Assembly (NCBI RefSeq): GCF_000255295.1
Contig: NC_017030.1
Span: 6,166,328-6,230,327 of the forward strand
Length of the DNA stretch: 64,000 bases
Reading direction: 5' to 3'
Source: Corallococcus coralloides DSM 2259
Lineage (GTDB): Bacteria; Myxococcota; Myxococcia; Myxococcales; Myxococcaceae
Shown one piece after another: positions 9,633 through 13,049 of the stretch. A program made the translations under genes and the position numbers. Under the pieces are notes generated by a model. That model was not told the origin of the DNA. It was given only the letters and a program-made list of their open reading frames with translations, and searched no databases. How positions within the stretch are numbered: position 1 is the first letter of the stretch; the number at the start of each line of letters is the position of its first letter.

Positions 9633-10409
9633 ATGGGTTTCCTGAAGCAGGGTGGGTGGGTGGTGCTGGGGGTGTTGCTCCACGCGAGCGGCGCGGCGGC
9701 ACAAATCGTCAACGTGCAGGCGCTCTTCGACGAGAAGGCGGAGCCGGGGCCGGCCGCGGCCATCGAGCTGGGAGGCGACTGGCGCACGGGCAGCACGGAG
9801 CTGTTCTCCATCCGCGGCTCCCTGGTGGGCCAGCTGCGCTCCGACCGCGGCGTCTGGCTGGGCGTCATCCGCGGTGAATATTCGTTCGCCAGCGGTGAGC
9901 GCATCGTCAGCCAGGTGCTGGAGCACGTGCGCTACCGGCGACAGTTCACGGACATGGTGTCGGGCGAGGTCTTCACCCAGCACGAATACAACGAGTTCCG
10001 CCGGCTCCAGCTCCGGGCCCTGCTGGGCGCGGGTCCGCGCTTCATCCTGCTCAACGAGGAACGCCTGGGGTTCACCTTCGGGGTGGCGCTGATGATGGAG
10101 TACGAACGGTTGCGCAAGGACGGCGAGCCAGACGCGGGAGACCGCTACATGGACCCGCGAGTCTCCAGCTATCTACTGGCCCGGGTGAAGCTGATGGAGA
10201 ACATCAACCTCGTGGAGACGGTCTACTTCCAGCCGCGAGTCACCCGCCCCTCCGACCTGCGCGTGCTCAACGAGACGATCTTCGCGGTGACGCCCAATCC
10301 CCGCGTCACGGTGGGCATCGGCTTCAACCTCACCTACGACAGCGCACCGCCCGCGACGGTGCCGCCCCTGGACACGCAACTGCGCACCACGGTGGGCGTG
10401 AAATTCTGA
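9633..10409 (+). CDS. Secreted/outer-membrane protein, possibly DUF481 (YdiY-like) beta-barrel
   Basis: There is an N-terminal signal peptide, VVLGVLLHASGAAAQ, and the protein is about 258 aa. Alternating hydrophobic strands and a terminal F are typical of small outer-membrane beta-barrels. The family assignment is tentative. Confidence 0.45.
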   Translation: MGFLKQGGWVVLGVLLHASGAAAQIVNVQALFDEKAEPGPAAAIELGGDWRTGSTELFSIRGSLVGQLRSDRGVWLGVIRGEYSFASGERIVSQVLEHVRYRRQFTDMVSGEVFTQHEYNEFRRLQLRALLGAGPRFILLNEERLGFTFGVALMMEYERLRKDGEPDAGDRYMDPRVSSYLLARVKLMENINLVETVYFQPRVTRPSDLRVLNETIFAVTPNPRVTVGIGFNLTYDSAPPATVPPLDTQLRTTVGVKF

Positions 10410-10428
10410 GTGGGCGGCCAGAGGTTCG

Positions 10429-11706
10429 TCACAACAAACGTGTCATGGAGCACCAGAGGCGCACAGCCCATCGGCCCAAGCGGCTCAGTGCGCCGTGAAT
10501 CAGTCCGTCCTCCCCGCTCTCCGCGACGCGACCGTCTCCGCGGGAATCGTCGGGTAGCGACTCGGCCTGGAGGCCCCCCTCGGGAGAGGAAGCGCCCCAA
10601 CCTGACCGACGGTCGGATGAGTCGCTCAAGGCCGAGCCCGGCACCTCCCCCTCGGTCCACACCCCGCCTGGCTCGCCAGGATTGAGACTCGGAGCGGTAG
10701 GAAACAGCGCCCCGATGGCCGTCTCCATGGAGAGCACCGCCTCCTGGGAATGGGATTCAATCCCATGCGCGCCGGAGTCCCCAGCGGCAGGAGCAAGGCG
10801 GACGAGGCACGGTTCCTCCATGTGGGGACGCACCTCAAACGCCGTCTCCTGCACGGTGAATGGCGCACGGTCGCCAAGATCCGGCTCATTGACGCCAGGA
10901 CGTGCCCCCAGTGCCGTGTCTTGCGCGGGGGGTGATACTGGGACGCCACGGCATGCCTTCTGGGAGAGCGGGGCTTCGGGTGAAGCCTGCTCCTGGGGTG
11001 CGGGGGCAAAGGCGTTCAGCACGCGCTCGTCACATGCTTTCAGTAGCGCCGGCAACTCGTGCTGAAGCGCCTGCACGTCGCGCTCGTGCAGGATCGCCAT
11101 CACGCGGAAGGCCCACTCGCGCAGCGCCTCTCCGCCCATGAGCGGCAGCAGTTGGGCTGCGCCCCCCAGGAATGCCCGCTGCAGGGACTGAACGAGGAGC
11201 ACATGCCCGGGACGCTCCGCCACCCGCGCAGCCTGCCGCAGCAACTCGAACTCCACCTGCGCGCAGGTGGCCCCCGGCTCCCAGCGCGCCGCGTCCTGGA
11301 GCTGGAAGCACGTACTTCCCAGTCGGTCCAGGTCGAGGTGCGAGGCCCTCGCGCAGCAATCGGCCAGAAGCTCCAACAGCACCTGCCGTTTGAGGCTGAA
11401 GTAGCCCTCCAGGAGCCACCGGGCGTCCGGGTTGCTCGCGTCATGCAGCGCCAGGCCCAGGTTCTCCAGCGTCAGCGACACATCCAGCGCCACCGCGCGC
11501 GTCCTGCGTCCGGGGCGCTGCACCACCAGGCCCCTCGCCGCCAGCCGCCGCAGCGCCTCACGGATGGTGCCCCGGCATACCTCATAGCGACGCGCCAGCT
11601 TCGCTTCCGAGCCGAATTGCCCGCTCGGGTGCAGCCGCCCCAGCGCGATATCGCGCTCGATTTGCGCCTCCACATAGGCCACGAGTCCTCCCCGTCCCAT
11701 CCCCAT
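10429..11706 (-). CDS. GntR-family transcriptional regulator (winged HTH N-terminus; long low-complexity C-terminal extension, 3' end uncertain)
   Basis: The N-terminus, GSEAKLARRYEVCRGTIREALRRLAARGLV, is a GntR-type HTH. A helical FCD-like middle follows. The last roughly 180 aa are Pro/Gly/Ser-rich. Confidence 0.65.
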   Translation of the reverse strand: MGMGRGGLVAYVEAQIERDIALGRLHPSGQFGSEAKLARRYEVCRGTIREALRRLAARGLVVQRPGRRTRAVALDVSLTLENLGLALHDASNPDARWLLEGYFSLKRQVLLELLADCCARASHLDLDRLGSTCFQLQDAARWEPGATCAQVEFELLRQAARVAERPGHVLLVQSLQRAFLGGAAQLLPLMGGEALREWAFRVMAILHERDVQALQHELPALLKACDERVLNAFAPAPQEQASPEAPLSQKACRGVPVSPPAQDTALGARPGVNEPDLGDRAPFTVQETAFEVRPHMEEPCLVRLAPAAGDSGAHGIESHSQEAVLSMETAIGALFPTAPSLNPGEPGGVWTEGEVPGSALSDSSDRRSGWGASSPEGGLQAESLPDDSRGDGRVAESGEDGLIHGALSRLGRWAVRLWCSMTRLL

Positions 11707-11815
11707 TCCCCCTCCTCGTCACAGCATCGCCATCCAACCACAGGGGTCTGACATGGACGTGCGACCCCATTCTCATTGCCAGCCAGGAGGTCGCCCTCCG
11801 GGGCCGGACGGCGAG

Positions 11816-12026
11816 AAACTTGTCCGACAGTCAGACAGGTTTTCGCCACATGGAGCCCGCGAACTTGTCCGACTGTCGGACAGGTTTTAAGGCGACCGGG
11901 CCCCGGCGGGCACCTCTATCCCTGGCCTCGCCTGCGCGTCCGCGCATGCATGACGTCGCGTCCCCGCGAAGCAGCGCGGCCGTTGGGCTTCATGCGGGGA
12001 AGCTTGTCTGCCTGTCGGACAGGTTT
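11816..12026. promoter_or_regulatory. Three copies of a ~25-bp palindromic putative operator (cTTGTCCGAC-n-GTCGGACAGGTTT) in the GntR/proC divergent intergenic region
   Basis: The copies lie at about 11816-11843, 11861-11888 and 11999-12026. The middle copy, TGTCCGACTGTCGGACA, is a perfect palindrome. A GT-N-AC core is typical of GntR-family operators. Confidence 0.5.
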
Positions 12027-12197
12027 GGAATGTGCTGGCCCGGCGGGCGCCACGGCCGGTGGCGTCACCCTGGCATTTGTTGAGGCACACCCGCTCAGCC
12101 CGCCACTGTGCTCCACGGCGCGCGTCCTCGAGGGCAACACCCGAGCACGGATGCTGTTGGCAACTTCGGGTGGCCCGCATGAGGGTAGGCTTCAGCG

Positions 12198-13049
12198 ATG
12201 GCGTCCCATTCCATCCCCGGCCCGGTCGTCCTCCTGGGAGGCGGCAAGATCGCAGAAGCCCTCATCCAGGGACTGTTGCGGTCCGGCCATGTGCGTCCGT
12301 CGGACCTGCGCGTCACCGTGCGCCGGCCCGAACGTGGAGAGGAGCTGCGCTCCCGGCACGGCGTGCACGTCCTCATGGACAACGCGCAGGCAGTGCGGGG
12401 CGCGGGGGTGGTCCTGCTTGCGGTGCGGCAGGCGCAGCTGCGGGAGCTGATGGCGGTCATCTCCCCTGCCCTGGAACCGGGACAGACCGTGGTGTCGCTG
12501 TCCGCGGACGTGCGACTCGCGCAGTTGGAAGCGGCGTTGCCGTCCTGCGTCTCCGTCATCCGCGCCCTGCCCCATACGCCCGTGCGCGTGGGAGCGGGCG
12601 TAACGCCCCTGACGGCCGGGACCCGGGCGACGGAGGCCGCGAGGCAAGCCACCGAGTCCGTCTTCGCGGCGACGGGCCGGCCAATGTGGATGACCGAGGA
12701 AGCCCTCACGGTCTGCACGGGTGTGTGCGGCACGGGCCCCGCGTATGTCTTCCGCTTCGTGGAGACCCTGGCCCAGGCCGCGATGGCACACGGAATGGAG
12801 GCGGTGGAAGCGGCGGCGCTCGCCAGGGAAACGCTCATTGGCGCGGCGAAGCTGCTGGCCGAACCCGGTGCCACCACCCCTCGCCTCATCACGGAGATCG
12901 CGACCCCGGGAGGCATCACCGAGGCGGGGCTGAAGGCAATGGATGCCCACGGTCTGCCTCGCGTCGTGGGCGAAGCGGTCTCCGTCGCCATCCAGCGCAC
13001 CCGGGAGCGCGCGGACGCGAACGCCGCAGCCTACAACACTCCGAAGTGA
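12198..13049 (+). CDS. proC: Pyrroline-5-carboxylate reductase
   Basis: An N-terminal Rossmann fold is present, VVLLGGGKIAEAL. P5CR signatures are ALPHTPVRVGAGVT and TGVCGTGPAYVF. Confidence 0.9.
   Translation: MASHSIPGPVVLLGGGKIAEALIQGLLRSGHVRPSDLRVTVRRPERGEELRSRHGVHVLMDNAQAVRGAGVVLLAVRQAQLRELMAVISPALEPGQTVVSLSADVRLAQLEAALPSCVSVIRALPHTPVRVGAGVTPLTAGTRATEAARQATESVFAATGRPMWMTEEALTVCTGVCGTGPAYVFRFVETLAQAAMAHGMEAVEAAALARETLIGAAKLLAEPGATTPRLITEIATPGGITEAGLKAMDAHGLPRVVGEAVSVAIQRTRERADANAAAYNTPK

Follow-up and report, generated by a model that had tools for sequence, protein, structure and literature searches.

The three palindromes located between a GntR-family gene and proC in Corallococcus coralloides DSM 2259 probably constitute the 5′ flank of a dispersed GntR cassette of ~1.7 kb, and are probably bound by the regulators that this gene family encodes. 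According to this interpretation, a cassette for a FadR-subfamily GntR regulator would exist in many copies in Corallococcus and related myxobacteria, one of which would have been inserted between a DUF481 gene and proC. The evidence described here comprises the distribution of the repeat, its fixed association with a single gene family, an insertion polymorphism at the proC locus, and the fold of the encoded protein.

Three palindromes of 27 nt were read directly from the sequence of the window (the whole 64-kb stretch of DNA that was analyzed); their coordinates are given with those of the associated features in Table 1. Their number, and the perfect symmetry of the middle one, agree with the preliminary description of this DNA: the core of copy 2 (11866–11882) is a perfect 17-nt palindrome, TGTCCGAC-T-GTCGGACA. 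When the 64-kb window was searched with a 20-mer pattern allowing up to three mismatches, the three sites were recovered together with a degenerate one at 10601–10620, compared with 0.03 expected from shuffled sequences; a degenerate 17-mer pattern gave seven matches versus 0.71 expected, and none of 100 shuffles reached seven. Isolated half-sites showed no over-representation within the window. The 27-bp unit, AAACCTGTCCGAC-W-GTCGGACAGGTTT, is composed of two abutting 9-bp GT-N3-AC boxes, TGTCCGACA and WGTCGGACA, with the centre base common to both, and is thus of the operator type that had been recognized previously. The flanking genes also proved to be those initially named, a GntR-family gene and proC, divergently oriented across a gap of 491 bp, and, measured from the GntR start, the three sites are centred 123 (copy 1, at 11829), 168, and 307 nt upstream. 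A scan of 11600–12300 for consensus promoters and terminators found none, and the sole Rfam match in 10300–12400 (MIR439, E = 0.6) is attributable to chance.

Table 1. Features of the GntR–proC region, in window coordinates.
Feature	Position	Strand	Remarks
GntR-family gene	10429–11706	minus	Pfam GntR, E = 6.4e-13
Constrained GntR part, aa 1–235	11002–11706	minus	wHTH and all-helical FadR-type C-terminal domain
Unconstrained ORF tail, aa 236–425	10429–11001	minus	Predicted disordered; repeat-derived
Degenerate fourth palindrome copy	10598–10624	none	7 mismatches; within GntR ORF tail
Second conserved box, CCATGTCAGACCCCTGTGGTTGGATGG	11730–11756	minus	24–50 nt upstream of GntR ATG
Larger imperfect inverted repeat	11787–11916	none	55-nt arms; encloses copies 1 and 2
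Palindrome copy 1, AAACTTGTCCGACAGTCAGACAGGTTT	11816–11842	none	GntR-nearest; 2 mismatches versus 27-nt consensus
Segment between centres of copies 1 and 2	11830–11873	none	Inverted in DSM 2259
Palindrome copy 2, GAACTTGTCCGACTGTCGGACAGGTTT	11861–11887	none	45 bp from copy 1
Palindrome copy 3, AAGCTTGTCTGCCTGTCGGACAGGTTT	12000–12026	none	139 bp from copy 2; 4 mismatches
Lineage-specific 1.77-kb insertion	10410–12182	none	Between DUF481 stop codon and last 15 bp before proC ATG
Pyrroline-5-carboxylate reductase (proC)	12198–13049	plus	TIGR00112, 198.8 bits versus cut-off 196.75

The larger inverted repeat that surrounds copies 1 and 2 is predicted to fold, as a single strand, into a ~140-nt hairpin (−93.8 kcal/mol, z = −9.6), in the manner of a REPIN-like doublet. 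Doublets of the same kind, with a spacing of 45–51 bp, were also found at the paralog loci L122, L124, L117, and L041, and a period of ~139–148 bp, comparable to the spacing between copies 2 and 3, occurs upstream of the paralogs at L122 and L123. The position of copy 1 is filled in all paralogs examined, and strain CA054B retains an intact core in copy 3. In DSM 2259, the 45-bp segment from the centre of copy 1 to that of copy 2 has the opposite orientation to its counterparts in CA054B (L001 2825–2895) and in the paralogs at L122, L124, and L117, which points to recombination or template switching between the palindrome arms.

The GntR-family ORF encodes two folded domains followed by an extended tail. 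Residues 1–235 have a GC3 of 0.8–0.97, with a dN/dS of 0.15–0.18 in both folded domains (DSM 2259 versus CA054B); the codon-position GC signal drops past residue ~240, and the dN/dS of the tail is 1.07 for the same pair of strains. Judged by codon-position GC, dN/dS, and predicted disorder, the tail is without protein-level constraint. The predicted structure consists of a winged helix-turn-helix (wHTH; residues 5–73), an all-helical domain (80–232), a region of very low confidence (244–402), and a terminal helix. The best structural matches were FadR, NanR, McbR, VanR, and PmiR, and profile matches among PDB entries were PdhR, FadR, and NanR; these matches identify the protein as a GntR regulator of the FadR subfamily that bears an unusual tail. 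Across 47 paralogs, the wHTH hardly varies; R45, T47, and R49 are invariant in the family and correspond to three DNA-contact residues of Escherichia coli FadR (PMC4259882). Between DSM 2259 and CA054B (L001 3001–4278), dS was 0.17–0.19 in the N-terminal domains, ~4 times that of the tail (0.04), and intergenic divergence between the two strains was 5%; the raised N-terminal dS might, for example, reflect gene conversion among paralogs.

The copy of the palindrome within the tail is intact in most paralogs, where it reads NLSDCRTG when translated, such that the functional GntR gene in effect has the repeat on either side. In distant members of the family (from Stigmatella, Hyalangium, and metagenomes) the tail has one to five copies of the palindrome-encoded peptide N[LR]SxCxTGS, which indicates that the association between palindrome and gene family is old. 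Tandem repeats of 24–32 aa (72–96 nt) were observed in the ORF tails of many family members (P0010, P0012, P0015, P0120, P0141, and P0146), and the annotation of one Aggregicoccus member as “fibrillar collagen” is probably due to its repeat-derived tail.

The window’s GntR protein matches a C. coralloides DSM 2259 protein with 100% identity, and its gene belongs to a large family of paralogs. The best 120 protein matches were all from Corallococcus (49–92% identity), and at least seven paralog clusters are encoded on the same 10.08-Mb chromosome as the GntR gene of the window. When 50%-identity representatives were searched, and the search was then repeated starting from a Hyalangium member, the family extended to Hyalangium spp., Stigmatella aurantiaca, Aggregicoccus, and many soil metagenome contigs; in Stigmatella there are several 90%-identity clusters, with 6–10 members on one genome. 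The genes adjoining the paralogs are all different and unrelated. No family members were found in viral contigs, PADLOC gave no match, and matches to PHROGs were to generic wHTH families only. A phage origin of the repeat was also rejected, as the three viral matches have different flanks and look like chance.

The palindrome has a fixed position relative to this gene family. It lies ~139 nt upstream of the ATG in all 24 family copies examined: a family gene is present at 21 of the 120 listed loci selected by the motif, with the 27-mer beginning ~139 nt upstream of the ATG in each, and, because those 21 had been motif-selected, three further paralog loci (L122, L123, and L124) were taken by protein identity alone. 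All three of the latter have the proximal palindrome, accompanied by one to six more copies upstream at spacings of 45–51 or ~139–148 bp (L122 having seven copies), and a 3′-tail copy is present at two of them, as it is in most members of the family. The layout in the window, with a 45-bp doublet and a third copy 139 bp further out, matches the family pattern exactly. As a negative control, 80 unrelated loci (190 kb) with generic GntR wHTH genes, obtained from a metagenome scan with the family alignment, contained zero copies of the palindrome. In ~1 Mb of DNA flanking the repeats, no other gene family was found to recur specifically beside them; other recurrent neighbours were histidine kinases, Ser/Thr kinases, and large synthetases.

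Alignment of the 24 upstream regions revealed that the palindrome and a second box are 90–100% conserved, compared with 50–70% for the intervening ~75 nt. The second box (family consensus CCATGTCAGACCCCTSTGGTTGGATGG) is present at GntR-family loci only, and may represent a promoter or leader element. Two other interpretations of the box were discarded: an upstream ATG as the true start codon, which is in frame in some paralogs but, in the window and its nearest relatives, is either out of frame or followed by a stop, and a sigma-70-like promoter on the opposite strand, the spacing of which varies among paralogs. In C. coralloides KYC2213, one locus (L083 7587–7800) has two palindromes, the second box, and a Shine-Dalgarno-like stretch with no GntR coding sequence after them, and looks like a truncated cassette. 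Solo arrays of the palindrome do not look like decayed GntR genes, given that no protein fragments were found outside of GntR loci.

Comparison of orthologous loci places the window cassette within a lineage-specific insertion. Homology to other species ends at 10407 and restarts at 12183, and homology among the paralog cassettes covers ~10445 to 12064–12076; these boundaries indicate that the long divergent region is the cassette’s own upstream flank. The DUF481–proC junction of C. praedator is 17 bp, with no palindrome and no GntR gene, and that of C. carmarthensis is 165 bp, with one solo variant element and no GntR gene; of the junctions compared, those of DSM 2259 and CA054B (the C. coralloides lineage) alone contain the full 1.77-kb GntR insertion. 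The orthologous junction is therefore seen without any insert, with a solo element, or with the full cassette. At this one polymorphic site there are possible target-site duplications of 3–4 bp (GAG, AGG), which are too short to judge, and no parent IS was seen for the repeat. The solo element of C. carmarthensis (L125 3880–3906) is the symmetric variant CAACTGGTCCGACTGTCGGACCGGTTC, in which the identical change in both arms preserves the palindrome. The DUF481 gene of C. praedator (L126 3463–3984) has a 222-bp internal deletion and was called as two fragments.

The proC gene of this locus is a lineage-restricted P5CR paralog and may not be the housekeeping proline gene: close P5CR homologs are few (14 at E ≤ 1e-60), and the gene resides in a conserved cluster (L125, L126, and L127) with PhzF-like, HSP20, DUF481, ArsR, P450, and ABM genes. 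The insertion severed proC from its former upstream partner, and proC transcription would therefore have to begin inside the inserted DNA. There would thus be room for a lineage-specific, by-product effect of the insertion on proC, and none for a conserved regulatory design; the link between the palindromes and proC appears to be incidental.

The repeat extends well beyond the GntR loci. An exact-match scan with YTGTCCGACNGTCGGACAR, using one genome per species, identified at least 120 loci, nearly all of them from Corallococcus among the matches listed; the scan demanded an exact core, which biases both copy numbers and core conservation. For this sequence, the chance expectation is estimated at ~1e-3 per genome. 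C. exercitus SDU142 has at least 34 eight-kb blocks with at least 50 perfect copies, spread over 0.9–9.0 Mb, and C. coralloides KYC2213 has at least 15 blocks; the repeat was also identified in several other Corallococcus species and at no fewer than 11 loci of one MAG. Among the matches listed, a few copies each come from Archangium, Vitiosangium, and Hyalangium; a handful of matches in Bacteroidales, Gemmatimonadaceae, and comparable groups are flanked by unrelated sequence and appear to be due to chance. In Archangium, Vitiosangium, and one MAG, solo copies occur in 8-kb blocks with no family gene, and the repeat may propagate independently of the GntR protein.

The outer AAC/GTT positions of the palindrome lay outside of the search pattern, yet are 92–96% conserved. 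Many solo copies are situated mid-way in an imperfect palindrome of ~70 bp, and a flanking box, CCSGGVGS, occurs 26–28 nt from the centre in ~35% of copies versus 3% of controls. Covariation was not detected beyond the 27-mer, as mirrored positions in an ungapped stack pair no better than in shuffled controls. Tandem arrays (L012, L036, L044, L057, L109, and L122) have periods of ~70, 83, 125, and 140 bp, and the spacers within one array are mutual copies. These are not CRISPR arrays: the array spacers copy one another, the period varies from 45 to 148 bp, and there is no Rfam/CRISPR match. The centre base showed regional clustering in incomplete samples of two genomes (loci from NZ_CP102577.1 and NZ_CP172866.1): in SDU142 it is mostly A at 0.9–3.7 Mb, T at 4.3–6.4 Mb, and A at 6.7–9.0 Mb, and in KYC2213 it changes from A in the first half to T in the other. 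Its orientation is unrelated to gene direction.

The genomic context of copies at loci without a family gene, determined with a crude GC3-based gene caller such that gene calls are approximate, was 24 convergent, 10 divergent, and 46 tandem, compared with a background of 103, 96, and 266, respectively. This distribution of solo copies resembles that of REP elements. There was no bias of copies toward gene starts, and those in the 57–160-bp gaps between convergent genes cannot be promoter operators there. The motif, for which a genome search had initially been proposed in order to define a regulon, is present at a minimum of 120 loci, many of them between convergent genes, and is not confined to promoters. 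The 27-mer hairpin has a free energy of −17.8 kcal/mol, with short runs of A and T on its flanks, and might possibly act as a terminator; T runs of ≥4 nt accompany ~20% of copies, the run usually being just 2–3 nt.

In our proposed mechanism, dimers of the cassette regulator and its paralogs, all having a nearly invariant wHTH, would bind the palindromes, and binding upstream of the conserved promoter-like box would lead to auto-regulation and cross-regulation of the GntR family. The 27-bp unit also occurs in extragenic DNA across the genome, singly and in tandem arrays, much as REP elements do, and the solo copies would provide additional binding sites and, at the ends of genes, stable hairpins. 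An influence on proC, if there is one, would follow only incidentally from the insertion that parted it from its former upstream gene. We infer binding of the palindrome by GntR proteins, and the direction of regulation, from sequence and predicted structure: the GT-N3-AC boxes, the GTCCGAC core common to this repeat and FadR sites, and the invariant R45, T47, and R49 all favour binding by the family’s proteins, and autoregulation by the adjacent GntR regulator is plausible. Three observations count against this mechanism: copies between convergent genes cannot be promoter operators, which would leave most copies with no evident regulatory function; solo copies occur in Archangium, Vitiosangium, and one MAG in blocks lacking a family gene; and the near-perfect identity of many copies is a feature to be expected of a mobile repeat in recent spread more than of transcription factor sites.

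The principal competing explanation, to which we assign a distinctly lower probability, is that the palindrome is a selfish REP/MITE-like element mobilized by an enzyme supplied in trans and acting as a DNA or RNA hairpin, for instance as a terminator or mRNA stabilizer; the GntR gene would then be a mere passenger, or would have been co-amplified as a cassette bounded by such elements, and its product would not bind them. The dispersed extragenic copies with some excess between convergent genes, the arrays and the inverted doublet, the stable hairpin with A and T runs, the insertion polymorphism at one orthologous site, and the solo copies in genera with no family gene seen nearby are all consistent with such an element, as are the existence of a truncated cassette and a recent burst in Stigmatella that produced at least 10 near-identical GntR copies. 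However, the ~1 Mb of flanking DNA examined showed no recurrent transposase or RAYT-like gene, only about one-fifth of copies adjoin a T run of ≥4 nt, and this explanation accounts neither for the fixed position and perfect sequence of the palindrome upstream of paralogs that have only 50–70% protein identity, nor for boxes that match the class of protein encoded adjacently. A further possibility, which we regard as equally tentative, is a self-propagating module in which a gene for a FadR-type protein is flanked by arrays of its own site, analogous to REPIN/RAYT but with a transcription factor fold; in Corallococcus and related myxobacteria the gene would have multiplied to many copies, and the site to tens or hundreds per genome, and the protein would then recruit host recombination or replication to copy the elements, or would silence or organize them family-wide.

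Binding of the palindromes by the GntR family as part of a dispersed cassette is also favoured over two explanations that we consider highly improbable. In the preliminary description, the three sites would serve cooperatively as a dedicated operator, from which the neighbouring GntR protein would control its own gene and proC, as an input into proline biosynthesis. The sites do lie in the divergent region and are conserved in CA054B, and a protein bound within the inserted DNA could affect proC; nevertheless, they occur upstream of every paralog examined whatever gene lies beyond, as well as at many other loci, and the P5CR paralog is restricted and, in a PhzF/P450/ABM cluster, is not evidently a housekeeping enzyme. 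Moreover, proC has no GntR neighbour in C. praedator or C. carmarthensis, where there is no element and one solo element, respectively, so that control of proC is not a conserved regulatory input, and the comparative data already largely refute the proC-operator reading. What survives of the operator proposal is a site fixed upstream of 24 of 24 GntR paralogs, albeit as a genus-wide repeat rather than a private triplicated operator; across orthologous gaps, the motif is absent from that of C. praedator and retained in that of CA054B. It is also very improbable that the palindromes are chromosome-wide architectural sites (compare Noc, SlmA, MatP, and ParB), bound by the GntR paralogs or another protein so as to organize or mark the nucleoid instead of regulating single genes. 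Tens of highly conserved palindromes over the whole chromosome, and the clustering of centre-base orientation by chromosomal region in an incomplete sample, would fit such a role, but, unlike known architectural sites, the palindromes are kept out of coding sequence, are locally arranged in tandem, and differ from species to species at an orthologous site.

The repeat has features in common with several known systems. As with the REP/BIME elements and REPINs of Enterobacteria and Pseudomonas, it is a many-copy extragenic palindrome, often at gene ends, that occurs singly, as inverted doublets, or in clusters; unlike REP elements, the palindrome is perfect and has no GTAG/CTAC head. The REPIN–RAYT system is similar in that one specific gene is flanked by the repeat, with its presence varying between relatives. 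RAYTs are typically single-copy (PMC3337134; bioRxiv 10.1101/2022.05.22.493013), whereas the partner here is a multi-copy FadR-type GntR wHTH regulator instead of a transposase of the HUH tyrosine class; within ~1 Mb of DNA around the repeats, no single-copy RAYT (Y1/HUH transposase) was found to be flanked by them. Bidirectional intrinsic terminators and paired uptake sequences likewise have a GC-rich hairpin with A/T runs and are frequent between convergent genes, but differ from the present case, in which one exact sequence is reused genome-wide and the T run is usually 2–3 nt. Rickettsia palindromic elements (RPEs) are palindromic repeats located inside ORFs and read through in frame; RPEs are found in diverse essential genes, unlike the in-frame copies described here, which are in the unconstrained tail of one family.

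FadR, PdhR, NanR, and VanR share the fold of the GntR protein and have palindromic GT-N3-AC boxes upstream of their own genes, and E. coli FadR sites, e.g., fadL site 1, carry the GTCCGAC core that is also in the palindrome (PMC4259882). In contrast to operators of FadR-type regulators, the site here is 27 bp with two abutting boxes, is present in one to seven copies upstream plus a copy in the 3′ tail, and is dispersed genome-wide, including in promoterless places. In contrast to the regulators themselves, there are many paralogs with one common site, and no effector or target pathway is evident.

The searchable full-text literature, covering the sequence itself as well as work on GntR and REP in Corallococcus or myxobacteria, yielded no account of this repeat or of the amplification of the GntR family, and the combination of repeat and regulator family appears to have been previously unremarked. 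Motif-based regulon predictions in myxobacterial genomes should mask the 27-bp repeat, and some lineage-specific GntR regulators are mis-annotated as a result of translated, repeat-derived tails. If the GntR proteins bind the palindrome, this would constitute a repeat family with a multiplied partner of the transcription factor type, and a tractable case of a site and its binder spreading together and rewiring neighbouring genes; it would also account for much of the lineage-specific GntR complement of myxobacteria that is so far unannotated.
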